From positions 3,981,560 to 4,045,559 of the forward strand of contig CAVWUH010000002.1 in the NCBI GenBank assembly GCA_963758195.1: a stretch of 64,000 nt of DNA. Reading direction: 5' to 3'. The notes under the pieces are model-generated. The model was not told the DNA's origin. It was given only the letters and a program-made list of their open reading frames with translations, and ran no database searches. Source of the DNA: an uncultured Acidobacteriota bacterium. Lineage in GTDB: Bacteria > Acidobacteriota > Thermoanaerobaculia > Gp7-AA8. This document shows positions 1,867 to 63,725 of this stretch, one piece after another; the first letter of the stretch is position 1; every line of letters begins with the position of its first letter. The position numbers and the translations under genes were made by a program.

Positions 1867-2604
1867 TGCACGAAGTTCCTCAGCACACGCAGGCCCGCGT
1901 CGGACGATTTCTCGGGATGGAACTGCACGCCGAACACGCGTCGCTCCTGGGCCGCGGCGGTGAAGGTGCCGTCGTAGTCCGCAGACGCGATCTCGTCTGG
2001 CGACGCCGCGCGCCGCAAACGAGTTGACGAAGTAGAACGGCGTTCCGTCGTCGATGCCATCGAAGAGCGGACCGTGCCCGGTCACGCGATTCCATCCGAT
2101 CTGTGGCACGGGCAGCGGTCCGTCGAAGTGCTCGACCTCACCGCGAAGGAGACCGAGGCCGCGCGTGGAGCCCATCTCGCTGGAGACGTCGAAGAGAACT
2201 TGATGGCCGACGCAGATGCCGAGGAGGAGCGCCTCATTCGTCACCGCCTCGCGAATCGCGGCGTCGAGGTGCGTCGACTCGAGAAACTGCATCGCCGCCG
2301 CGAACGAACCGACCCCCGGCAGCACCAGTTTGCGCGCCCGCGCGATCGCACGCGGTTCACGCGTGAGCTCGAGATCTGCGCCGCACGCGCGCAACGCGCG
2401 CGCGATGTTCGCGACGTTGGCGACGGGAGAATCGATAAGGGTGACGGCAGAAGCCGCAGGCTTCGGCGGTTCTGTGTAGCGACGGCCGCCCTCGGCCGTC
2501 GGCTCGAGCGCCACACGAAAATCCGAGACGGAATGCACATCGTTCTGCTTGCCGGCCGAGGGCGGCCAGCACCACACAGAACCGCGTTCGCTCCGCGAAA
2601 ACAT
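1857..2604 (-). CDS. hisH: IGP synthase glutamine amidotransferase subunit HisH, frame-disrupted near 2004-2016
   Basis: N-part is in the frame of ORF 406..2751 (VTLIDSPVANVANIARAL...LVLPGVGSFAAAM...LLGICVGHQVLF...FYFVNSFAA). C-part is in ORF 1857..2060 (ASPDEIASADYDGTFTAAAQERRVFGVQFHPEKS). A +1 shift is needed inside GCGGCGCGCGGCG. TGATG junction with hisB at 2604. Start uncertain: ATG 2604 or GTG 2514. Confidence 0.8.
2464..2586. repeat. hairpin repeat family F (arms GGTTCTGTGTAGCG.GGCCGCCCTCGGCCG / CGGCCGAGGGCGGCC..CACACAGAACC) lying in the 5' part of the hisH frame
   Basis: Arms 2464-2498 and 2553-2586 are reverse complements. A second copy with the same arms and a different loop lies at 16394-16550. 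Confidence 0.8.
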
Positions 2605-3191
2605 CAAATCACTCCCTTCGTGCTCGGCACGTCCGCTCCGACAACTTCCTTCGCCATACGAACCGCGATCGCGAACGCCTTGAAGATCGCCTCCGCCGCG
2701 TGGTGGCCGTTGCGGCCGCGGATCAGGTCGACGTGGATGTTGCAGGCGCACTTGTTCGCGAACGACTTGAAGAACTCCTCGACGAGCGCGAACGGAAAGT
2801 CGCGGTGGATGAGCAGCATCTCGCGATCGATCGGAACGTCGAACACGAGAAACGGACGGCCGGAGAAATCGACGACCACGCGCGCGAGCGATTCGTCGAG
2901 CGGCACGTAGGCGTGGCCGAAGCGACGGATGCCGCGCTTGTCGTTGAGCGCGGCGGCGAACGCTTCGCCGAGGACGAGGCCCGTGTCTTCGACGGTGTGG
3001 TGATAGTCGATGAACGTGTCGCCGGTAGCGACGATGTCGAGATCGACCTGGCCGTGACGGGAGATCACCTCGAGCATGTGCGAGAGAAATCCGATCGGCG
3101 TGTCGATCTTCGAACGGCCGATGCCGTCGAGGTCGAGCGTGACCGCGACCGAGGTTTCCTTCGTGGCGCGTGTGACCGTGGCCGTTCTCAT
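2604..3191 (-). CDS. hisB: imidazoleglycerol-phosphate dehydratase
   Basis: ORF 195 aa: TKETSVAVTLDLDG...GFLSHMLEVISRHG...DYHHTVEDTGLVLGEAF...NGHHAAEAIFKAFA. ATGA overlap with the hisC stop. Confidence 0.95.
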   Translation of the reverse strand: MRTATVTRATKETSVAVTLDLDGIGRSKIDTPIGFLSHMLEVISRHGQVDLDIVATGDTFIDYHHTVEDTGLVLGEAFAAALNDKRGIRRFGHAYVPLDESLARVVVDFSGRPFLVFDVPIDREMLLIHRDFPFALVEEFFKSFANKCACNIHVDLIRGRNGHHAAEAIFKAFAIAVRMAKEVVGADVPSTKGVI

Positions 3192-4217
3192 GCGAGCTCC
3201 TTCAGTGCGGCGAGGAAGCAGTCGTTCTCGTCACGCGTGCCGATCGACACGCGCAGGCAGCGCTGCATGCGCGGATACGACGAAACGTCGCGCAGGAGAA
3301 TGCCGCGGCGATGGAAGTCGTCAAGCAACAACGCGGAGCGGAAGGCGACGAAGTTCGCCGACGTCGGAAAGACGGTTAGCGCCGGAATCGCGCGCATCAC
3401 GGCGAGGATGCGCTCGCGCTCGGCGAGCATACGCGCGACGTTGCCGTCGCGGATGTCGCGGCGCGCGAGCGCGGCCGCGGCGATGGTTTCGCTGACGATG
3501 TTGAGGCTGTAGGGGAGCTTCACCTTACGGATCTGGCGGCAGGTCGCGGCGGTCGACGCGAGCCAGCCGACGCGCAGACCGGCGAGGCCCCAGGCCTTCG
3601 AGAAGGTCGAGAACGTGACGAGGCGATCGTGCAGCGGAGGCAGCGTGTCGTTCGCGAAGTCGCCGTACGCGCGATCGAAGAGCACGGTTGCGCCAGTGGC
3701 CAGCAGCGCGTCGAGTCCGCCGCGTGGCAGCACGCCGCCCGTGGGGTTGTTCGGCGAGCAGAGAATCGCGATGGAGCCGGGAAGCTCTTCGAGCGCGCGA
3801 AGCATCTCGTCGAGCGGCAGAAAACCGGAATCGGGATCGAACTCGATGGGAACTGCGTTGCCGCCGGCGATCGTGATCAGTTTCTCGTAAAGCGTGAAGG
3901 TCGGGCGCGGAAAGACCACGGGCAGTGCCTGGCCCGACGAACGCGCCGATCGCGGCGGCGAGAAGCTCATTCGAGCCGTTGCCGGTGAGGATCTCTTCCG
4001 CGCGCAGGTCGTACGCATTCGCGAGCGCGTTGCGGAGCGTGGTCGATTCGAAGTCGGGATAGCGATTCCAGGGCATGGCTTCGATCTGCGCGAGGAGCTG
4101 TTGTTTGATCTCGCGCGGAACGTCGAACGGGCTTTCGTTCTGATTCACCTTGACCTCGGCTTCGCGGAGCTCGAGGGTGTAAGCGGTCATGGCGGCGACG
4201 GCGGCGCGGGCGTTCAT
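3188..4217 (-). CDS. hisC: histidinol-phosphate aminotransferase, frame-disrupted near 3925-3940
   Basis: N-part is in ORF 3525..4217 (VKVNQNESPFDVPREIKQQL...ILTGNGSNELLAAAIGAFVGPG). The rest is in ORF 3188..4018 (QALPVVFPRPTFTLYEKL...LCSPNNPTGGVL...STFSKAWGLAGLRVGW). A +1 shift is needed at GGGCCAGGC. Confidence 0.85.
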
Positions 4218-5455
4218 TTCGTGGCTCCTGCGATCGGCTGGAAGCCGGTGGACCGGCAGGCTGGAAGCCTGCGCTCCGTGATCCTGCGCTCCATCGACTG
4301 GGCGTGTTGCGGCAGGCCTTCGAATCGGGCGATGGCGGCGGCGGACGGGGCGAGATCCTGCAGTTCCTCTTCGCTCAGCGTGATGATGTTCGTGCGTTTC
4401 ACGAAGTCGTAAACGCCGAGGGGCGAGAAGAAGCGCGCGCTGCCGGCGGTGGGGAGAACGTGATTCGAGCCGATCACGTAATCGCCCGCGGCCGGCGGCG
4501 CAAACGGGCCGCAGTAGATCGCGCCGGCATTGCGGGCGCGGTCGGCAATCGATCGCGCGTCGCGCGCGTGAATCGAAAGATGCTCGGGCGCGATGCGGTC
4601 GGCGATGGCGATCGCTTCGTCGACCGAGCTTGCGGTGAGCGTGAGCGTCGCGCGAACGTCAAGCGCCTTTCCTATGCAGATGCAGATCACGGCGGAGTCG
4701 GGGCCGTGCTCCTGTTGCGCGTCGAGATCGGCCTGCACGTATTCGACGTTCGCGGAGTCATCGGCGATCACGACGAGCTCCGTCGGCCCGGCGGTCATGT
4801 CAATGCCGACTTCGCCGATGAGCCGCGCCTTTGCCGCGGTGACGTAGGCGTTCCCGGGGCCGGCGATCTTGTCGACGCGCGTGAGCGTTTGCGTTCCGAG
4901 GGCGAGCGCGGCGATGCCCGACGCGCCGCCGGAGCGATAGATCTCACGAATGCCGAGGCGCGAGCAGACGTAGTGCAGCTCATTGCGCGCGGCGACCGCA
5001 GGCGTCGTGGCGACCACGATCTCTTCGACGCCGGCGATCCGCGCGGGAACGGCGCACATGATCAGCGTCGAGACGTACACCGCACGTCCGCCGGGAACAT
5101 AAACGCCGACGCGCCGCAGCGGCTTCACGCGATGCGTCACGCCTTCCCACGTGTACGAGGCAGGCAATTGCGCACGATGGAACGCCTCGACCCGCGCGAT
5201 GGCGAGATCGAGCGCCTGCGCGAGTCCGGCATCGATGTGCGCTTCGCGCACCGTCATGAGGATCTCTTCGGGCTCGATCGAGACGCCGTCGAAGCGTTCG
5301 ATCTGTCGCGCGACGTAGCGATCTCCCTCCGCGCGCACGCCGGCGATCATGTCGTCGGCAACGCGCAGCGCGTCTTCGTTCGCGCGTCCGCGACGCGCTT
5401 CGATCTCCCGCAACGCGGCTTCTGCTTCAGGCGACGCAGCTTCGAGCTTGTTCAT
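4214..5455 (-). CDS. hisD: histidinol dehydrogenase with a repeat-encoded C-terminal tail
   Basis: ORF 413 aa: VGVYVPGGRAVYVSTLIM...IAGPGNAYVTAAK...QQEHGPDS...IGSNHVLPTAGSARF. The last ~19 aa (RRLPACRSTGFQPIAGATK) are read from repeat family G. ATGA overlap with the hisC start. Confidence 0.95.
   Translation of the reverse strand: MNKLEAASPEAEAALREIEARRGRANEDALRVADDMIAGVRAEGDRYVARQIERFDGVSIEPEEILMTVREAHIDAGLAQALDLAIARVEAFHRAQLPASYTWEGVTHRVKPLRRVGVYVPGGRAVYVSTLIMCAVPARIAGVEEIVVATTPAVAARNELHYVCSRLGIREIYRSGGASGIAALALGTQTLTRVDKIAGPGNAYVTAAKARLIGEVGIDMTAGPTELVVIADDSANVEYVQADLDAQQEHGPDSAVICICIGKALDVRATLTLTASSVDEAIAIADRIAPEHLSIHARDARSIADRARNAGAIYCGPFAPPAAGDYVIGSNHVLPTAGSARFFSPLGVYDFVKRTNIITLSEEELQDLAPSAAAIARFEGLPQHAQSMERRITERRLPACRSTGFQPIAGATK
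4234..4275. repeat. repeat family G (GGCTGGAAGCC twin mini-hairpins) inside the hisD 3' end
   Basis: CGGCTGGAAGCCGGTGGACCGGCAGGCTGGAAGCCTGCGCTC. Near-identical copy at 6085-6127. Confidence 0.85.
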
Positions 5456-6068
5456 GTTTCGCTTCCTCGATCCGCGCGATCAGCTCGCGGATCCGTTGGT
5501 TGTTCATGCGGTAAACGTTCTTCGACACGATGAGCCGCGGCGTGATTTCCGCGACGAGGTCCTGCAATTCGAGGTTGTGGACGCGCACGGTCTCGCCGGT
5601 CTCCACGAGGTCGACGACGTGCGAGGTGAGGCCGAGCACCGCCGCCAGCTCGACCGAACCGGCGAGCGGCACGACCTCGGCGCGCAGGGCGTTCGCGTCG
5701 AGGTATTGGCGCGTGACGCGCGGATATTTCGTGGCAATGCGCGCGGTGATGTCGCGCGACAATCGTGGCGAGCCGGCGGCGCCAATCACCATCATCCGGC
5801 AGCGCCCGTACGGCAGTTCGAGCGATTGGTAGGCCGTGCTCTCGTGCTCGAGAATCTGATCGAAGCCCGCGACGCCGGCGTCCGCCGCGCCATGCTCGAC
5901 ATAGGCGGGGACATCGGAGTCCTTGACGAAGATCCACTCGATGCCGCCGCGCGTGAAGACGAGCCTTCGCGTGCGGAGATCGAGCTCGGTGGGAACGTCG
6001 TAGCCCGCGGCTTCGAACGTCGCCAGAACGGGCGATTGCAGTCGCCCTTTGGGAATTGCGATTCTCAT
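5427..6068 (-). CDS. hisG: ATP phosphoribosyltransferase, short (HisZ-dependent) form
   Basis: ORF 213 aa: [15 protein letters not shown]...FVKDSDVPAYVEHGAADAGVAGFD...VATKYPRVT...LTSHVVDLVETGETV. ATGA overlap with the hisZ stop. Confidence 0.9.
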   Translation of the reverse strand: MRIAIPKGRLQSPVLATFEAAGYDVPTELDLRTRRLVFTRGGIEWIFVKDSDVPAYVEHGAADAGVAGFDQILEHESTAYQSLELPYGRCRMMVIGAAGSPRLSRDITARIATKYPRVTRQYLDANALRAEVVPLAGSVELAAVLGLTSHVVDLVETGETVRVHNLELQDLVAEITPRLIVSKNVYRMNNQRIRELIARIEEAKHEQARSCVA

Positions 6069-6844
6069 GATTGCTCCTGTGGTGCCGGCTGGAAGCCGGC
6101 GGACCGGCCGGCTGGAAGCCTGCGCTCCTCCAATTCATCGATGGTGAAGGTGAAGCCGATCGCCGGCGCGTCGTGGCCGAAACGGCCGTAGAGCGTGTCG
6201 TAGCGTCCGCCCTGCGCGATCAACGTGCGGCGATCGTTGCCGAAGACGCCGAAGCGGAGACCGGTGTAGTAGCCGGTGTCGGTTTCGCGGTCATCGACAT
6301 AGGCGACGAATCGCGGATCGTCGCCGAGATCGGCGGTGAGCTCGGAGCCGAGCGCCGCGACGCCGGTGTACGTGACGAGGGGATCGATGTCGAACGATCG
6401 CGCGATCGTCGCGACGAGCCGCAGGATCGCGGCGTCCGCTGATGGAGAAGGATCGCCAATCAGTTCTGCGCCGATCTGGAAGAGCTCGCGGTTGGCGCCG
6501 AGTCGCGTGGCCTGACAACGAATGACGTCGCCGCGATAGAAGACGCGCAGCGGCAGATCGTCTTCGTCGAGCGCCGGCGCGAGCGCGCGGGCAACCATCG
6601 GTGTGAAGTCGGATCGAATCGCGACGAGCTCACCGTCGCGATCGGTGAATCGATAGCTCTGTCGCGCGGCGTCGCGTCCCATCACCGTCGCGTAGGGTTC
6701 CGCGAAGTCGATGATCGGCAGGACGACCTCGGCGAAGCCTTCGCTTTCGAGGAGCGCAACGAAACGCGATTCGATGCGTCTTCGCCGCGCCGTCTCTTCG
6801 ATCAGCAGCGGTCGTGCGCCCGTCGGATATCTGAATTTGCCCAT
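6065..6844 (-). CDS. hisZ: ATP phosphoribosyltransferase regulatory subunit (HisRS paralogue) with a repeat-encoded C-terminal tail
   Basis: ORF 259 aa: class-II aaRS-like core ([46 protein letters not shown]). It sits next to a short hisG. The tail [19 protein letters not shown] comes from repeat family G. Confidence 0.8.
6085..6127. repeat. repeat family G copy inside the hisZ 3' end
   Basis: CCGGCTGGAAGCCGGCGGACCGGCCGGCTGGAAGCCTGCGCTC. Same reading frame and same position relative to the downstream ATGA junction as the hisD copy. Confidence 0.85.
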
Positions 6845-6845
6845 C

Positions 6846-6884
6846 AGTCAAAAAACCTCTTCCCCGTGTTCAGGAAGAGGTTTT
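6846..6884 (-). terminator. rho-independent terminator-like hairpin plus U6 directly upstream of the hisZ start (candidate attenuator terminator)
   Basis: Minus-strand RNA AACCUCUUCC-UGAACACGG-GGAAGAGGUU followed by UUUUUUGACUG-AUG(hisZ). Perfect 10-bp stem at 6854-6863/6873-6882. Confidence 0.6.
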
Positions 6885-6948
6885 CGACTCGTCGCAGATG
6901 CTCATCGCGTGCGCCCCCTCCTTTCGGCGGGGCACAACGAACGCACCC

Positions 6949-7032
6949 CTACCGCCTGTGATGGTGGTGGTGGTGCCGATGCGTGCGAGTGGCGTTCACG
7001 TCGCCGGGCAGTGTAGCAGAATGCGTTCCCAT
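6949..7032 (-). CDS. candidate his operon leader peptide (27 aa, His-codon run)
   Basis: Tail of ORF 6949..8169(-) from ATG 7032..7030: [27 protein letters not shown]. Codons are CAT CGG CAC CAC CAC CAC CAT CAC. It lies upstream of the terminator and hisZ. No obvious SD. Confidence 0.5.
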
Positions 7033-7047
7033 TACAATCGCGCGACC

Positions 7048-8247
7048 ATGACGTCCACCATGACAATTGATGAACAACTCGACTACCTCGCCAAGGGGAC
7101 GGTCGATCTGATCGAGCGCGCTGACCTCAAGTCGAAGATGGAGCGGGGCAAGCCGCTGACGATCAAGGTCGGGTTCGATCCGACGGCGCCGGACATTCAC
7201 CTCGGCCACACGGTCGTGATCCGCAAGATGCGCCACTTCCAGCAGCTCGGGCATCGCGTGATTTTTCTCATCGGCGACTTCACCGGCATGATCGGCGACC
7301 CAACGGGCAAGAAGGCCACGCGTCCCGCGCTGTCGCGGGAAGAGATCGCCCAGAACGCGGAGACGTACCGCCGGCAGGTCTACAAGATTCTCGATCCCGA
7401 GAAGACGGAGATCCGCTTCAACTCCGAATGGCTCGGCGCCCTCGGCGCGGAAGGGATGGTCCGTCTTGCCGCGAAGTACACGCTGGCGCGCATCCTCGAA
7501 CGCGACGATTTTCGAAAACGCTTCGAAGCGCATCAGCCGATCGCCATCCACGAACTGCTTTATCCGCTCGCGCAAGGCTACGACTCCGTCGCGCTGAAGT
7601 GCGATGTGGAGATGGGCGGGACCGATCAGCTTTTCAATCTGCTCGTCGGCCGCGATCTCATGCGCGAGTACAAGCTCGAGCCGCAGGTCGTGATCACGAT
7701 GCCGCTGCTCGAAGGTCTCGATGGTGTCGAGAAGATGTCGAAGTCTCTCGGCAATTACATCGGCATCGACGAGGCGCCGGCGCAGATGTTCGGCAAGGTG
7801 ATGTCGATCTCCGATGAGCTGATGTGGAAGTACTACGTGCTCTGCACCGATCTCACGCCCGCGCAGATCGCCGAGCGGCGTTCGCTCCATCCCATGGATG
7901 CGAAGAAGGAACTGGCGAAGTCGATCATCCGCGACTTCCACGATGCCGATGCGGCGGAAGCGGCGGAAGCCGAGTTCAAGCGGATCTTCAGCGACGGACA
8001 GAGACCGACCGAGATCGAGGAGAAGTCGCTGCCGTCGACCGCCGAGCCCCAGCTCCTTGCCCGCGTCATCACCGCGGCGGGCCTGGCCGAGAGCAACAAG
8101 GACGCGCAGCGTCTGATCGCGCAAGGCGGAGTGCTCGTCGACGAAGTGAAGATCGAGTCGATCAAGCACGCGCTCGATGCCGCTGCGGGGAAGAGCTACG
8201 TGATCAAGGTGGGAAAGCGCCGGTTCGCGCGAGTGACGTTCGGCTAA
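7048..8247 (+). CDS. tyrS: tyrosine--tRNA ligase
   Basis: ORF 6898..8247, start taken at ATG 7048 ([14 protein letters not shown]). HLGH and KMSKS class-I signatures, with a C-terminal S4-like domain ([14 protein letters not shown]). Confidence 0.93.
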
Positions 8248-42342: not shown

Positions 42343-44472
42343 ATGAAACAGCTCATCCAGAACATCCGCACCGGCCAGAGCGTCGTCGAAGACGTTCCTG
42401 CTCCGGGCATCACGAGCGGGCGCGTGCTCATTCGCGTCGCCAGCTCGCTCGTTTCCGCGGGGACAGAGCGGATGATCGTCGAGTTCGCGGAGAAGAACCT
42501 CCTCGAGAAGGCGCGCTCGCGTCCCGATCTCGTGCGGCAGACGCTCGATAAAGTTGCGCGTGATGGCGTGCTGGCGACGCTGGAGACCGTGCAGAACCGG
42601 CTCGATCAGCCGATGACGCTCGGCTACTCCGTCGCCGGAGAAGTCATCGGCGTCGGCGCGGGCGTCGAGGGAATCGCGATCGGCGATCGCGTCGCCGCGG
42701 CGGGTGCGAATCAGGCCGTACACGCCGAAGTCGTATCGGTGCCGAAGAACCTCGTGGCGAAGATTCCGGAAGGCGTCGACTTCGACGCCGCGGCGTTCAC
42801 CACCGTTGGCGCCATCGCTCTGCAGGGCGTGCGTCTCGCCGAGCCCCGCCTAGGCGAAGTCGCCGGTGTCATCGGGCTCGGACTCCTGGGACAGATCACC
42901 GTGCAGCTCCTGCGCGCGAACGGCTGCCGCGTCGTCGGACTCGATCCTCAGGCCGCACGCGCGGAGATGGCCAAGCGCTTCGGCGCCGAAGAGAGCGTGA
43001 CCAGCGAAGCCGATTTCCGCGGGGCGTGTGCGCGCGCGACGAATGGACGTGGCGTCGACGCCGTGCTCATCACCGCCGACACGAGCTCCGACGGGCCGGT
43101 GATTCTCGCCGGCGACGTCGCGCGCGACAAAGGCGTCGTCGTCAGCGTCGGCGCGGTCGGCATGAACATCCCGCGCAAAACGTACTTTGAGAAAGAGCTC
43201 GACTTCCGCATCTCGCGCTCGTACGGGCCCGGCCGCTACGACGACGTATACGAGCAGCAAGGAAACGACTATCCGTACGGCTTCGTGCGCTGGACGGAGA
43301 ACCGCAACATGCAGGCGTTTCTCTGGCTCGCCGGCGAAAAGAAACTCGACCTCGGCGCGCTCATCACGCATCGCATCGACATCGCCGAAGGAACGCGCGC
43401 GTACGACCTCATCACCGGCAAGAGCGGTGAGCCCTTCATGGGCGTGCTCCTGCAGTATCCGCGCGACGAACAACCGTCATCGCGCACGATCGCGTCCACC
43501 GCCCACCGCCCACCGCCAACCGCCAACTCCCTGCGCATCGGCTTGATCGGCGCCGGCAAGTTCGCGAGCGCGGTGCTGCTTCCGGCGATGAAGGCCGCGG
43601 ACGCGGAGCTCGTCGGTGTCGCCGCGGCGAGCGGCACCTCGGCGCGACACGCGCTGAATCGCTACGGCTTCCACTACTGCACCACCGACGACGAACAGAT
43701 CCTCGCCGATCCCAACGTCAACGCCGTCGTCATCGCCACGCGACACGATCTGCACGCGACGCAGACGATGCGCGCGCTGTGCGCGGGGAAACACGTCTTC
43801 GTCGAGAAACCGCTCTGCCTCACCGAGGAGGAGCTCGTTGAAATTCGCGCCGTATACGCGGAACATCCGTCGATCGTGATGGTCGACTTCAATCGTCGTT
43901 TCGCACCGATGTCGATCGCGCTCCGCGACTTCATGCGCGGCGCGGGCGAGCCGCTGATGATTCACTATCGCGTCAACGGCGGCTTCGTTCCGGCCACGGA
44001 ATGGGTGCAGCGCGAGCAGGGAGGCGGGCGGCTGGTGGGGGAGGGCGTGCACTTCATCGACTGGGCGGTCTGGCTCACCGGCGACGTGCCCGAGCGCGTG
44101 CAATGCGTCGCTGCCGACAACGCCGGCCGCTACTCGAACGACAATTTCTCGGTCGTGATTCGCTTTCGCGGCGGGAGCGTGTTCCAACTCCTCTACGTGG
44201 CGTCCGGCGATCGCGCGCTCGGAAAAGAGCGCGTCGAAGTCCACGGCGGCGGACGCAGCGCGGTACTCGAAGACTTTCGCAAGCTCGAGCTCTTCGCGAA
44301 TGGCCGCAAGTCGGTGACGCGATCCATCCTTCGCTCCGACAAGGGACACCGCGCCGGATTCGCGGCCTTCGCCGACGCGATTCGCAAAGGCGGCGCATCG
44401 CCGATTCCGTTCGAAGAGATCGTCACGACTATGCGCGCCGCTTTCGACGCGCGGCGGAGTCTGAGCGCGTGA
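42343..44472 (+). CDS. bi-domain oxidoreductase (N-terminal MDR/zinc-alcohol-dehydrogenase-like, C-terminal Gfo/Idh/MocA-like)
   Basis: ORF 709 aa. N half: GYSVAGEVIGVG, GVIGLGLLGQITVQLL. C half: LRIGLIGAGKFA, VVIATRHDLHA, HVFVEKP. The linker carries a heptamer tract (43496-43530). Confidence 0.8.
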   Translation: MKQLIQNIRTGQSVVEDVPAPGITSGRVLIRVASSLVSAGTERMIVEFAEKNLLEKARSRPDLVRQTLDKVARDGVLATLETVQNRLDQPMTLGYSVAGEVIGVGAGVEGIAIGDRVAAAGANQAVHAEVVSVPKNLVAKIPEGVDFDAAAFTTVGAIALQGVRLAEPRLGEVAGVIGLGLLGQITVQLLRANGCRVVGLDPQAARAEMAKRFGAEESVTSEADFRGACARATNGRGVDAVLITADTSSDGPVILAGDVARDKGVVVSVGAVGMNIPRKTYFEKELDFRISRSYGPGRYDDVYEQQGNDYPYGFVRWTENRNMQAFLWLAGEKKLDLGALITHRIDIAEGTRAYDLITGKSGEPFMGVLLQYPRDEQPSSRTIASTAHRPPPTANSLRIGLIGAGKFASAVLLPAMKAADAELVGVAAASGTSARHALNRYGFHYCTTDDEQILADPNVNAVVIATRHDLHATQTMRALCAGKHVFVEKPLCLTEEELVEIRAVYAEHPSIVMVDFNRRFAPMSIALRDFMRGAGEPLMIHYRVNGGFVPATEWVQREQGGGRLVGEGVHFIDWAVWLTGDVPERVQCVAADNAGRYSNDNFSVVIRFRGGSVFQLLYVASGDRALGKERVEVHGGGRSAVLEDFRKLELFANGRKSVTRSILRSDKGHRAGFAAFADAIRKGGASPIPFEEIVTTMRAAFDARRSLSA

Positions 44473-53347: not shown

Positions 53348-53489
53348 GAGTTGGCGGTTGGCAGGAGCGAGACCCGAAGCGGAGTGGACAGGGGACAGGG
53401 AACAGGGGACGCTCGTGCGTTGAGCAAGCGTCCCCTGTGGCCTGTCTACCGTCTACCGGTCAGTTCGTGTCTCCGCCAACCGCCAACGC
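53348..53489. repeat. nested heptamer-arm hairpins: family C outer arms, family J inner element
   Basis: GAGTTGGCGGTTGGCAGG ... [GGACAGG GGACAGG GAACAGG GGACGCTCGTGCGTTGAGCAAGCGTCCCC TGTGGCC TGTCTAC CGTCTAC C] ... CTCCGCCAACCGCCAACGC. Confidence 0.8.
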
Positions 53490-55127: not shown

Positions 55128-56231
55128 GCACCACCGCACCGAGCGATCTCAGCGCAACCGCCGTCATCCAGATGATCGCCGCGGGTGCTTATCCACGCGA
55201 CGTCGTCACCACGATCGCCCGCGGCTTCATGCCGCTGGCGCAGGAAGATCTCATCGGCGTGCTGGCCTATCTCGTCAGCGCTGGTGACGGGGAGATCTCC
55301 GCGCTTGCGCGGACCTCGCTGCACGACGTTCCGATACGGGCGATGTTCGAGTACGCGTCGAATGAAGCGATCGCCGGCGATCAGCTCATCCGCCTCGTCG
55401 ACGTGGCAACCGACACCCTCGTGCTCGAGGCGCTCATCCGCAATCGCGCGGTGCCGGACTCCTCGATCGCCGAGCTTGCGCTGCGCGCCGAGGCGCGGCT
55501 GCAGGAAGTCATCGTCATCAACCAGGCGCGCATTCTTCGCGCGCCGGAGATCCTCGACGCTCTTCTCGAGAATCCGAATCTGACGCCCGACGCCCGCCGG
55601 CGGGCGATGGAGACGAAGGAAGAGTTCTTCGAGAAGAAAGCGCGGCTGCTGCTGATCGAACAGGAGCGGGCGGCGGAGGCCGAGAGAGAGCCGCTGATCG
55701 TCGATGCGCCGCTCGAGGAGATCGCCGACTTGCTCGAGAAGGCCGCGGAGCTCGGCGACGAGGTCACGCCGACGGTGGTGACGATCACCGACTCCGATCG
55801 CATGGATCCGCAGAAAGCGGCGGTGTGGGCGCGCATTCAGTTCATGACGATCAGCGAGAAAGTGCAGCTCGCGTTCAAGGGCGATCGCACGATCCGCATG
55901 ATCCTGGTGCGGGAGCGGAACAAGCTGATTTGCGCGGCGGTCATGCGCAATCCTCGGATGACGGAGACGGAAGTGGAGAGCATCGCCGGCATGCGCAACG
56001 TGGAGGAAGAGGTCCTTCGCCTCATCGCCTTGCGGCGCGACTGGATCAGCAAGTACAGCATCATGCTGGCGCTCCTCCGCAATCCGAAAGCGCCCATCGG
56101 GGTTGTCCTGCCGTTCGATCAATCGTTTAACCTTACGTGATTTGAAAGGGTTGAAGGACGACAAGGGAGTACAGGCAGTCGTCCGCGACATGGCGAGAAA
56201 GTCGTATACGTCTCGAACCCAGAAAGAATGA
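55124..56231 (+). CDS. hypothetical alpha-helical repeat protein, frame-disrupted near 56117
   Basis: ORF 55124..56140 (repeated ..RNP....... motifs). After VLPF the sensible continuation INRLTLRDLKGLKDDKGVQAVVRDMARKSYTSRTQKE* is in the +1 frame. It ends in an ATGA overlap with the next gene. Confidence 0.5.
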
Positions 56232-57646: not shown

Positions 57647-57727
57647 GAGTTGGCGGTTGGCAGTTGGCGGTTGGCAGTAGACGCCAACCCGGCTGCTTGC
57701 TCCCGCCAACTGCCAACCGCCAACTGA
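57647..57727. repeat. heptamer-arm hairpin, family C (CAGTTGG/CGGTTGG ... GCCAACT/GCCAACC units)
   Basis: GAGTTGGCGGTTGGCAGTTGGCGGTTGGCAG ... CCGCCAACTGCCAACCGCCAACTG. Confidence 0.85.
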
Positions 57728-57735
57728 GGATCATC

Positions 57736-57960
57736 GTGCACGTTCGAATCGATTACTGCGGCGTTTGAAACTACCTTCCCAGGGCCTCCAGTCTGGCGGC
57801 CGAGATCCGAAAGAATTTCGATGTCGAGAGCGAGCTCGTTCGCGGCAGCGGCGGCATCTTCGTCGTCTCCGCGAACAATGAAGTGCTCTTCTCCAAGAAG
57901 GACGAAGGCCGCTTCCCGACGGAACGAGAGATCGTCGAAAAGCTCCGCGTGATCGCGTAG
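57736..57960 (+). CDS. SelW/SelT/SelH (Rdx) family selenoprotein, Sec encoded by in-frame TGA 57766-57768
   Basis: Hand translation from GTG 57736 (GAGGA 6 nt upstream): (M)HVRIDYCGV-U-NYLPRASSLAAEIRKNFDVESELVRGSGGIFVVSANNEVLFSKKDEGRFPTEREIVEKLRVIA*. CxxU at the family's CxxC/CxxU position. Not in the ORF track because of the TGA. Confidence 0.7.
57778..57801 (+). promoter_or_regulatory. candidate bacterial SECIS hairpin
   Basis: 12-36 nt after the UGA: GGCC-U-CC AGUCU GG-C-GGCC (57783-57801), or alternatively CCAG GGCCUCCAGU CUGG (57779-57796) with GG at the start of the loop. Confidence 0.4.
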
Positions 57961-57976
57961 TTCACGACAACCAAGA

Positions 57977-58050
57977 TTTCACGCGGAGACGCGGAGACGC
58001 GGAGATGCGGAGAAATGCGTCGCCGATTTCTCTCCGTGTCTCCGCGTCTC
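57977..58050. repeat. octamer-arm hairpin, family D (GCGGAGAC units)
   Basis: TTTCACGCGGAGACGCGGAGACGCGGAGATGCGGAGAAATGCGTCGCCGATTTCTCTCCGTGTCTCCGCGTCTCCGCGTGAACC. Confidence 0.85.
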
Positions 58051-58091
58051 CGCGTGAACCCGAACTCTGCGACTTCATCCATAATGTCTGC

Positions 58092-58433
58092 ATGTCGGAG
58101 CCAACCTTCATCGAGCGTCTCGGGGAGACTGTCCAACTTCACGCAAGTGCGAAGCAGGTGTATGGCGAGCCGGTCGAGCGCGATGGCACGACCGTCATTC
58201 CCGTCGCGCGCGTGCAGTGGGGATTCGGCGGCGGCGGGATCGGACGCGGGGTGGCCGAGCGAGGCGGGGGCGGGGGCGGCGCGCAGGCCTATCCGGTCGG
58301 CTTCATTCACTTCCGTGATGGCGTTGCGGAGTTCCGTCCGATACATGATCCGATGGGCATGATGACCCTCGCCGCGGCGGGCGCAGCTGGCCTCATCGCC
58401 GCGCTGCTTCTGACGAAACTCTTGCGGCGATAA
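58092..58433 (+). CDS. GerW/YtfJ-like small protein
   Basis: Frame of ORF 58005..58433 from ATG 58092: AKQVYGEPVERDGTTVIPVARVQWGFGGGG......GGGGGA.A.PVGFI, with a C-terminal TM. Family recalled from memory. Confidence 0.55.
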   Translation: MSEPTFIERLGETVQLHASAKQVYGEPVERDGTTVIPVARVQWGFGGGGIGRGVAERGGGGGGAQAYPVGFIHFRDGVAEFRPIHDPMGMMTLAAAGAAGLIAALLLTKLLRR

Positions 58434-58451
58434 CCGCCTACAATTCGCCCC

Positions 58452-60170
58452 GTGCGCCCGGAGGTCGAGGAGCTTCGTCCCCAACTGAAAGCGATTCTGT
58501 ACGACTGCGCGGTGGAGATCCGCGCCACGAAAGCCGCCGTGTACATCTTCGACGGTTCGGCGAAGTTCGAGCTCGTGACCGAGTACGGATTCCGCGGCAC
58601 CGGCGTGCGGCAGTGGGCCGATTTCAACGATCCGATCGTCGATCGCTGCGGCCGCGGACGAACGACCTTTGTCGTGAACGGCATCGCCGCCGATCCGCGC
58701 TTTTCTCCGCTGCTTTATGAAGCGTCGACAGACCGTCTTCTCGTCGCGCCTTTGTATTCGCGAGGGAAGCTGATCGGCTTCGTCGACATGCGCGACAAGT
58801 CCGGCCAGGCACCCTTCGAGAGCGGCGACATCGCCAGGGCGCAACACATCGCCGACCGCATGGTCGAGGTCTTCGCGGAGAAACAGCTCTTCGGGCATCA
58901 CTTCATCGCGCTGTCGAAGCTGAGCGGACCGCAGCCGGTCGCCGGATCGGAAAGTGGGAATGTCAGTCCGGTGCCGCCGGTCCGCGAGCATCCGATCGAA
59001 CCGAATCCGGTTGCGATGCCGGTCATTCCGCCCGCTCCTCTTCCCGTGAGCACTCCGACGACGGCACCCGAACCGCCGCCTCCTCGCGTTGCGGTATCGG
59101 CGTCGATGCGCGGTTTGCCTCTGCGCGAAGCACGCGATGCCGCCTATCGCATTCCGGCAACGCCTCCGCCGCCTTCCCTCACCGAGGGGGCGATGAATGC
59201 CGCAAAGGACGTGTTGCGCTCGGTGCTCCTGATTCCGGGCGCCGTCCTCGTTTCGCTCAATGCATTCGGACACCTCGGCGGACTGCAGGAAATCGCCGCG
59301 CGCTCGTCGCTCACCGATGATGCGAAGAAGCTACTCGAGTCGAAGGTCAACGCCTGGCTGGCGAAACGGGGAGAGGCGGGAGGCGCGGTGCGTACCTCCG
59401 TGCACACGCCGTACGGGACGTCGACGCCGCCGATCTCATCGGCTGACGTGCAAAAGATCTTCACCGCGCCGCTCGCCGTCGGCACATTGCGCGGGCTGTA
59501 TCTCACCGTCGCATTCGCCGGCAATCCCGATCGCGTCGGGCACGAGCTCCTCGCGTTGATGCACGCGCATCTGCAGCTCGTGCTCGAGCAGTCGATGCAG
59601 CGCGAGGTCGTTGGCGCGCTGCATGAACGGATCGCCGAGAAATTGATCGAGCCGGATCTCCAGAAGTTCCCGGAGTTACGCCGGCACTCCGAGGCGGTGG
59701 CGACGCTCACCGAGCGTTTCGCGCGGTTCCTGGCGCTGACGCCGCAGGAGGTTGAGAACGCGCGCATCGTGGCGTTGGTTCACGACGCGGGCATGCGCCT
59801 GCTCGATTACGAGCACCTGTATCGCAAGGCCGCGCTCACCGAGGACGAGCTCGGATTTCTGCGGCAACACCCCATCGTCGGCGCGGCGATCGTCGAGCCG
59901 CTCCTCGGCCCGGAGATCGCCCGCGCCGTGCTCTGTCATCACGAGCGCGCGGACGGTTTCGGCTATCCGAGCGCGCTGCGCGGCGAAGACATTCCGCTGC
60001 TCGCGCGCGTCGTGCAGATCTGCGATGCCTGGATCGCGATCACCGATCCCGACGGCTACCAGAAAGCGGACAAGCCCGAGGATGCGCTGGCGATGATGAC
60101 GATCGCCGGCGGAACGCAATTCGATCCCGAGCTCTGCGCGCGCTTCGTCGAGATGATGAAAACGCGTTGA
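58452..60170 (+). CDS. GAF-domain / HD-GYP-domain signalling protein (putative c-di-GMP phosphodiesterase)
   Basis: ORF 572 aa. N-terminal GAF-like region (LLVAPLYSRGKLIGFVDMRDK). C-terminal HS.AVA, ALVHDAGM, HHERADGFGYP. Confidence 0.8.
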   Translation: MRPEVEELRPQLKAILYDCAVEIRATKAAVYIFDGSAKFELVTEYGFRGTGVRQWADFNDPIVDRCGRGRTTFVVNGIAADPRFSPLLYEASTDRLLVAPLYSRGKLIGFVDMRDKSGQAPFESGDIARAQHIADRMVEVFAEKQLFGHHFIALSKLSGPQPVAGSESGNVSPVPPVREHPIEPNPVAMPVIPPAPLPVSTPTTAPEPPPPRVAVSASMRGLPLREARDAAYRIPATPPPPSLTEGAMNAAKDVLRSVLLIPGAVLVSLNAFGHLGGLQEIAARSSLTDDAKKLLESKVNAWLAKRGEAGGAVRTSVHTPYGTSTPPISSADVQKIFTAPLAVGTLRGLYLTVAFAGNPDRVGHELLALMHAHLQLVLEQSMQREVVGALHERIAEKLIEPDLQKFPELRRHSEAVATLTERFARFLALTPQEVENARIVALVHDAGMRLLDYEHLYRKAALTEDELGFLRQHPIVGAAIVEPLLGPEIARAVLCHHERADGFGYPSALRGEDIPLLARVVQICDAWIAITDPDGYQKADKPEDALAMMTIAGGTQFDPELCARFVEMMKTR

Positions 60171-60175
60171 ACACA

Positions 60176-60257
60176 AAGATTTCACGCGGAGACGCGGAGG
60201 ACGCGGAGAAAGAAGTTGCTGACTTTCCTCCGTGTCTCCGCGTCTCCGCGTGAAACC
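60176..60257. repeat. octamer-arm hairpin, family D
   Basis: AAGATTTCACGCGGAGACGCGGAGGACGCGGAGAAAGAAGTTGCTGACTTTCCTCCGTGTCTCCGCGTCTCCGCGTGAAACC. Confidence 0.85.
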
Positions 60258-61908: not shown

Positions 61909-61980
61909 GTTTCACGCGGAGACGCGGAGACGCTGAGAAAGAAGTGCCTCTCTCCGTGTCTCCGCGTCTCCGCGTGAACC
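61909..61980. repeat. octamer-arm hairpin, family D
   Basis: GGTTTCACGCGGAGACGCGGAGACGCTGAGAAAGAAGTGCCTCTCTCCGTGTCTCCGCGTCTCCGCGTGAACC. Confidence 0.85.
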
Positions 61981-63691: not shown

Positions 63692-63725
63692 ACTCCGCAT
63701 CTCCGCGCCTCCGCGTGAGAACCGT
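63692..63725. repeat. collapsed half copy of family D
   Basis: TTCAC-TCCGCATCTCCGCGCCTCCGCGTGAGAACC. Only the right-arm type is present. Confidence 0.6.

Follow-up and report, generated by a model that had tools for sequence, protein, structure and literature searches.

Results

A selW-like gene with an in-frame TGA codon

As listed in Table 1, the stretch of DNA that was analysed here, which measures 64 kb and is referred to as the window, carries on its + strand a short selW-like gene that is interrupted by a TGA codon. The original prediction had read this gene as GTG-HVRIDYCGV-TGA-NYLPRASSLAAEIRKNFDVESELVRGSGGIFVVSANNEVLFSKKDEGRFPTEREIVEKLRVIA-TAG, and both sequence and translation confirm this reading, including the GAGGA that was suggested as Shine-Dalgarno sequence ahead of the GTG. 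The 74-residue product contains the redox motif C8-G-V-U11, in which the TGA occupies the second redox position. It was also anticipated that ORF finders would overlook the gene, and indeed this frame holds no ORF of at least 40 aa in the ORF list of the window, because the in-frame UGA looks like a stop. The same region contains a 500-aa ORF on the - strand (57771-59273) that runs across three genes of the + strand, namely selW and those for the YtfJ-like and GAF-HD proteins, all of which are backed by Pfam or by orthologues. This antisense ORF has the composition of a high-GC shadow frame and was rejected as a gene; it could mislead gene callers.

Table 1. Position of the selW-like gene and of its sequence features in the window.
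Feature	Position	Strand	Remarks
selW-like (Rdx family) gene, very probably encoding a selenoprotein	57736..57960	+	74 codons plus TAG stop, GTG start
Shine-Dalgarno-like GAGGA	57726..57730	+	5 nt before the GTG start; direct reading
Cys codon TGC, first residue of the CxxU redox motif	57757..57759	+	Cys8; alignment of 54 sequences
In-frame TGA, presumed selenocysteine codon, residue 11	57766..57768	+	TGA in 54/54 distinct aligned sequences
Putative SECIS hairpin	57783..57801	+	4 bp, U/C mismatch 57787/57797, 3 bp, apical loop GUC 57791-57793
TAG stop of the selW-like gene	57958..57960	+	Sequence and translation

The in-frame TGA is conserved among relatives

A protein search over 5.8 billion proteins returned 196 homologues, 120 of which were listed. 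Almost all of the listed homologues (118 of 120) were fragments of 40-64 aa that start after the TGA, and many of these fragments were already labelled "Rdx family protein" or "putative selenoprotein". For two of them the surrounding DNA was inspected, and in both cases the missing N-terminus was present, with a TGA just upstream of the called start. Relatives were also collected at the DNA level by a scan with one genome per species, which gave 53 loci, and the window and loci L001-L004 were added to these. The loci originate from Thermoanaerobaculia, other Acidobacteriota, Vicinamibacterales, Pirellulaceae, Gemmatimonadota, Betaproteobacteria, Zixibacteria, and Eisenbacteria. TGA was found at the same codon in 57 sequences including the window (54 of them distinct), covering at least six phylum-level groups, and the 56 related loci that share this codon with the window come from other assemblies. 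An orthologue with a Cys codon (TGC or TGT) in place of the TGA was found in none of the related loci.

In the 54 distinct sequences, the Ile, Tyr, and Cys residues upstream of the TGA are invariant while their codons vary synonymously, the first Cys of the motif being encoded by TGC in 52 sequences and by TGT in 2. A start codon was located ten codons before the TGA in 52 of the 54 (43 ATG, 8 GTG, and 1 TTG). Downstream of the TGA, the pattern PRASSLAAEI...GGxF...FSK...RFP is conserved across the orthologues, to which the window gene aligns without any indel. The original prediction had described the frame as coherent on both sides of the TGA, with a downstream GGxFxV...FSK...GRFP pattern that fits the family, and both statements agree with the coding conservation that is seen up- and downstream in the orthologues. 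It had also called for a comparison of the codon itself, and this showed that the relatives keep the TGA, instead of either using Cys or ending at this position, and that conservation continues beyond it.

Three exceptions came to light. In two full-length SelW homologues the TGA is replaced by AGA (Arg; L058, positions 1105-1107) or by TTA (Leu; L059, positions 142-144). Both are located on short soil-metagenome contigs, each is a single substitution away from TGA, and in both the SECIS hairpin is intact, in L059 with a compensated U-A pair. Rather than being Cys forms, both probably go back to errors in the reads or to a very recent loss of function. The only related locus without TGA is L052 (approximately 3001-3213), from chromosome 2 of a Vicinamibacterales MAG (OZ219745.1). 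It reads TYCTH-LPRASS where sister genomes read TYCTR-U-KY-LPRASS, an in-frame deletion of three codons that removes the Sec codon and keeps the sequence encoding the hairpin.

The product belongs to the Rdx family

For profile searches, U was replaced by C in the window protein. Full-length matches above the curated cut-offs were obtained with the selT/selW/selH models that had been proposed as a check: Pfam Rdx (PF10262) gave E=2.6e-19 and 69.6 bits against a cut-off of 22.6, covering profile positions 1-73 of 74, the NCBIfam equivalog NF041051 ("SelT/SelW/SelH family (seleno)protein") gave 92.9 bits against a cut-off of 88, and TIGR02174 ("CXXU_selWTH", NCBIfam) gave 55.8 bits against a cut-off of 34.2. 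A sequence search of the PDB matched the bacterial SelW-related structures 3DEX, 2FA8, 2OJL, 2P0G, 2OKA, and 2OBK with E values from 2.6e-10 to 1e-4, as well as MIEN1 (E=1.5e-7) and mouse SelW (E=0.24). In the alignments with 3DEX and 2FA8, the Sec position coincides with the second Cys of their CxxC motif, which corroborates the proposal that the TGA sits at the second redox position of a CxxC/CxxU motif.

A full-length orthologue with 73 % identity (P0001) stood in for the window protein in the structural comparison. Its AlphaFold2 model (pLDDT 88.6) shows the order b1, CxxU loop, a1, b2, b3, b4, a2, with b1 formed by residues 3-8, a1 by residues 14-28, and the redox motif in the loop between them. 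Foldseek aligned this model to 2FA8, 2OBK, 2OKA, 2OJL, 2P0G, and 3DEX with TM scores of 0.87-0.92 and an RMSD of 1.1-1.7 A, and MIEN1, mouse SelW, and thioredoxins followed after these six bacterial structures. Thus HMM, CxxU motif, and fold all agree, and on every feature that can be tested computationally the protein is a member of the Rdx family.

A covarying hairpin follows the TGA

The hairpin GGCC U CCA GUC UGG C GGCC is located downstream of the UGA, at a distance of 14 nt to the base of the stem and 22 nt to the loop, and comprises seven pairs. Bacterial SECIS elements have been described as stems of 6-8 bp with a loop G approximately 20 nt from the UGA (PMC4605307), and with a UGA-to-loop distance of 16-37 nt (PMC10778597); the geometry of the window hairpin lies within both descriptions. 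The folding energy of the region in the window sequence alone was no better than that of shuffled sequences (z -0.33 and +0.46), therefore the case for a hairpin that is not a product of chance rests on comparative evidence.

For this comparison we used a gapless alignment of 43 sequences, in which the core GCC-UCC-AGU-YUG-GCG-GC is nearly invariant and the loop reads GUY, with the G and U invariant. Across these 43 sequences, 99.3 % of the cells in the hairpin were paired, and when the partners were slid by 1-3 columns as a control, pairing was 14-44 %. Cells changed on both sides numbered 17 versus 4.1 expected, and none of 500 shuffles reached this value. Only two pairs are variable, columns 24-42 (GC 27, AU 11, CG 1, UA 1, GU 1, and two mismatches) and columns 27-39 (CG 39, UA 4). 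Both covary, and both link synonymous third codon positions. RNAalifold, applied to the same 43 sequences, returned the same seven pairs.

The synonymous sites within the core are constrained as well. The third-position entropy of codons +6 to +10 (GCC UCC AGU YUG GCG) was 0.38, 0, 0, 0, and 0.38 bits, respectively, and that of the invariant residues Pro15, Gly40, Val44, and Arg59, outside the core in the same gene, was 1.57, 1.84, 1.27, and 1.89 bits. The serine codon AGU is invariant although these genomes otherwise favour G or C at third positions. The core occurs once in the window. Its 17-nt sequence, GCCUCCAGUYUGGCGGC, is shared without change by the selW genes from Acidobacteriota, Planctomycetota, Gemmatimonadota, Betaproteobacteria, Zixibacteria, and Eisenbacteria, whose proteins diverge to ~45 % identity.

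The original prediction had offered two hairpins as possible bacterial SECIS. Geometry, covariation, and the agreement with RNAalifold support the one listed in Table 1. The alternative at 57779-57796, in which GG would open the loop, did not hold up, since only 72 % of its cells were paired, its pair 22-35 was broken in 31 of the 43 sequences, and it performed no better than shuffles. A search of Rfam gave no family match at the gathering score, and at permissive E values only meaningless miRNA-like matches to the flanking palindromes.

Gene neighbourhood and the remainder of the window

The downstream neighbour of selW encodes a YtfJ/GerW-like protein (PF09579), as had been predicted. The gene upstream was predicted to be a PP2C gene, and this identity stands, but the gene is frameshifted in the window. 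The context of PP2C, DnaJ/TPR, YtfJ, and GAF-HD genes is confined to Thermoanaerobaculia/Acidobacteria, and in other phyla selW is found next to genes for an M42 peptidase, a LON-domain protein, a sulfite-oxidase-like enzyme, PFK, GNAT, or phytoene synthase. Because the neighbours are confined to a clade and unrelated in other phyla, gene context is of no help with the function.

A comparison with ten orthologous Thermoanaerobaculia loci revealed six single-base insertions, at positions 56116, 56668, 56721, 56806, 57140, and 57420, each of them relative to at least nine of the ten. Each causes a +1 frameshift and none is located in a homopolymer run. Together they break the three consecutive genes immediately upstream of selW: an unnamed gene of the 362-aa type, the DnaJ/TPR gene, and the PP2C gene. 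An apparent in-frame stop at 56138 turned out to be the result of a frameshift. The insertions reflect either a stretch of the assembly that is locally rich in errors or three pseudogenes. No such damage affects selW or the genes downstream of it, and an independent assembly carries an identical GAF-HD protein.

Two types of palindromes, both of which recur elsewhere in the window, bracket selW. The first type consists of tandem ACGCGGAG octamers and their reverse complement, and is found in intergenic regions at 57978-58058, 60184-60251, 61914-61975, and 63693-63716. This octamer has 14 matches versus 0.5 expected by chance, and one copy is located directly after the selW stop; the palindromes look like a REP-like repeat family. 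The second type is built from AGTTGGCGGTTGGC units (10 matches versus 0.35 expected) and occurs at 57648-57726, 53349-53488, and 43508-43528. One copy fills the spacer between PP2C and selW and abuts the Shine-Dalgarno sequence. In relatives this spacer is much shorter, for example 13 nt in L001.

Most of the window (9635-53127) is taken up by one very large biosynthesis cluster of the polysaccharide/O-antigen type. It encodes a DegT aminotransferase, several NAD-dependent epimerases, Gmd, Fcl, a UDP-glucose dehydrogenase family protein, glycosyltransferases, a C-methyltransferase fused to a dTDP-sugar epimerase, asparagine synthase, Wzx-like (Polysacc_synt) and Wzy_C proteins, and a heparinase II/III-like protein. 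A his operon is located at 2604-8247, together with a gene for a class I (Trp/Tyr-type) aminoacyl-tRNA synthetase.

Other selenoprotein candidates and the Sec machinery

TGA is the commonest ordinary stop codon in the window. Three pairs of ORFs that are separated by TGA in the same frame were examined as further candidates, and none qualified as a selenoprotein gene. In the first, Gmd terminates at the TGA and Fcl begins right after it, the second consists of an epimerase followed by a glycosyltransferase, and the third is an antisense shadow frame. Since TGA serves as an ordinary stop elsewhere in the window, a reassigned genetic code is excluded.

No tRNA genes, including tRNA-Sec, were detected in the 64-kb window, for which ARAGORN was used, or in 55 related loci. 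Pfam annotation of ~40 ORFs of the window revealed no SelA, SelB, or SelD, and tblastn with the E. coli proteins as queries matched nothing, neither in the window nor in related loci totalling 371 kb. At this sampling depth, the absence of selA, selB, selC, and selD from 64 kb of a contig that exceeds 1 Mb is uninformative. Acidobacteria are documented users of Sec (PMC1794560). A search of the literature gave no paper in which Thermoanaerobaculia and selenocysteine are mentioned together.

Discussion

The locus described here combines a gene for an Rdx-fold protein, a UGA that is conserved in frame at the catalytic position, and a hairpin under selection at SECIS distance. We are highly confident that this is a functional SelW-like selenoprotein gene together with its SECIS, in which the UGA is almost certainly decoded as selenocysteine, assisted by the downstream hairpin. 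When the UGA is at the ribosome, the hairpin would sit at the mRNA entrance, where the C-terminal winged-helix domains of SelB could bind the GU-containing apical loop, as in the established bacterial mechanism. SelB-GTP would then deliver Sec-tRNA(Sec) to the A site, and selenocysteine would be inserted instead of translation being terminated. The nucleotides of the hairpin also encode the start of helix alpha1 (P-R-A-S-S-L-A-A), and this double use accounts for the invariance of the peptide across phyla. By homology, the mature protein may be a small thiol/selenol oxidoreductase, and redox cycling could proceed through a Cys8-Sec11 selenenylsulfide.

We considered three other explanations for the in-frame TGA. 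It is very unlikely that the TGA is a genuine stop, which would leave a pseudogene or a peptide of 10 residues, with the Rdx-like remainder either untranslated or started internally. Such a stop would fit with the frequent use of TGA for termination in the window, with public annotations that call the downstream part only, and with the broken appearance of the neighbouring genes in the window, but in the 54 distinct sequences the first ten codons show conservation at the protein level, begin with a conserved start codon, and are in frame with the downstream part. Moreover, in the window no in-frame ATG, GTG, or TTG follows the TGA before the GTG of Val50. A start there leaves 25 residues, and this shortened product would be devoid of strand b1 and of the whole CxxU motif, which define the fold. 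A covarying hairpin at the distance of a SECIS would have no role in this situation.

We attach an equally slight chance to a UGA that is decoded differently, be it as Cys on tRNA(Sec), by near-cognate readthrough with Trp, or in a reassigned code. That the window and the related loci yielded no Sec machinery is in keeping with this, but in most of the window's Pfam-supported genes TGA marks the end just where the C-terminus is expected, hence the code is not reassigned, and the codon specifies the catalytic second residue of CxxC/CxxU, for which Sec and Cys are the only states in the family. The strong selection on a SelB-type hairpin points to the Sec pathway, and if Cys were inserted through this pathway when selenium is limiting, this would amount to a variant of selenocysteine decoding as proposed here. 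Finally, there is next to no chance that an error in sequencing or assembly has turned TGC or TGT into TGA in an ordinary Cys-type Rdx gene, since, even with six window-specific single-base insertions in the 1.3 kb immediately upstream that make local quality questionable, and with two metagenome homologues carrying AGA or TTA, the TGA is present in 56 other loci from independent assemblies and TGC or TGT in none, the nearby errors are indels and not substitutions, and a Cys gene would have no use for a SECIS hairpin.

Selenocysteine decoding at this locus would be in line with what is known of related proteins. Bacterial SelW-like selenoproteins with a CxxU motif are an established family (PMC1088965, PMC1794560). 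In 2005 the Sargasso Sea data yielded 48 of these genes, more than for any other selenoprotein family (PMC1088965), and in 2006 they were catalogued in many genomes (PMC1794560). The window gene shares with the members from the Sargasso Sea, Geobacter, Desulfotalea, Symbiobacterium, and Campylobacter the HMM family, the CxxU motif, and the small single domain, and like them it carries a SECIS that follows the UGA directly and is itself coding. SelW-like proteins with Cys are rare in organisms that decode Sec (PMC1794560), in agreement with their rarity among close relatives. The window gene differs in its lineage, which according to its best matches is Thermoanaerobaculia-like Acidobacteriota. 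Its 17-nt SECIS core is identical in its relatives across several phyla.

The Cys-type bacterial Rdx proteins (2FA8 Atu0228, 3DEX SAV_2001, 2OBK, 2OKA, 2OJL, and 2P0G) have the same fold at 30-38 % identity, and carry their redox motif in the same b1-a1 loop. However, this motif is CxxC (typically C-T-Q-C), encoded by ordinary Cys codons for which no SECIS is needed, the proteins are ~20-30 residues longer than the window protein, and helix a1 starts with (W)L(P/L)RA(A/G)W(L/M)AQE instead of YLPRASSLAAE. Mammalian selenoprotein W (2NPB) and MIEN1 (2LJK) belong to the same Rdx superfamily and have CxxU or CxxC at the same structural position, the similarity to mammalian selenoprotein W being distant only (E=0.24 by sequence, TM 0.66). 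Whereas eukaryotic SECIS elements reside in the 3' UTR, have a different structure, and depend on SBP2/eEFSec, those of bacteria are read directly by SelB. The SECIS of the E. coli fdhF type is a hairpin that follows immediately 3' of the UGA inside the ORF. The window hairpin resembles it in this position, in its short stem, in the small apical loop that exposes G-U, in a U that is left unpaired three pairs below this loop, and in the distance of approximately 20 nt between UGA and loop G, but it has a 1x1 U/C mismatch in place of the single bulged U of fdhF, and its sequence is different. Its loop, the putative binding site of SelB, comprises 3 nt (GUY), or 5 nt if the closing A-U pair opens.

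The identity of the 17-nt core is tighter than recognition by SelB alone is usually thought to demand. The core might thus serve another purpose as well, for example by making translation or mRNA stability respond to selenium, or selW and its SECIS could be spreading horizontally among soil bacteria as a cassette. The locus would, in addition, document Sec decoding explicitly for the first time in the class Thermoanaerobaculia. We consider this reading as a whole rather improbable.

SelW-like selenoproteins of bacteria have been known since 2005, and the gene is a further member of this kind. It leaves known selenoprotein biology unchanged. Its value lies in part in annotation. selW-like genes have been missed or truncated by annotation in Epsilonproteobacteria (PMC4607533), and in nearly all related public genomes of the present set selW is called as a fragment of 40-64 aa without the active site. 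The 17-nt core could serve as a probe, or as a seed for a covariance model, with which mis-annotated selW genes could be found in large numbers. The locus also illustrates how an intragenic SECIS freezes synonymous sites together with the peptide that they encode. For the organism itself, the selW gene marks this Thermoanaerobaculia-like soil acidobacterium as a probable user of selenium.
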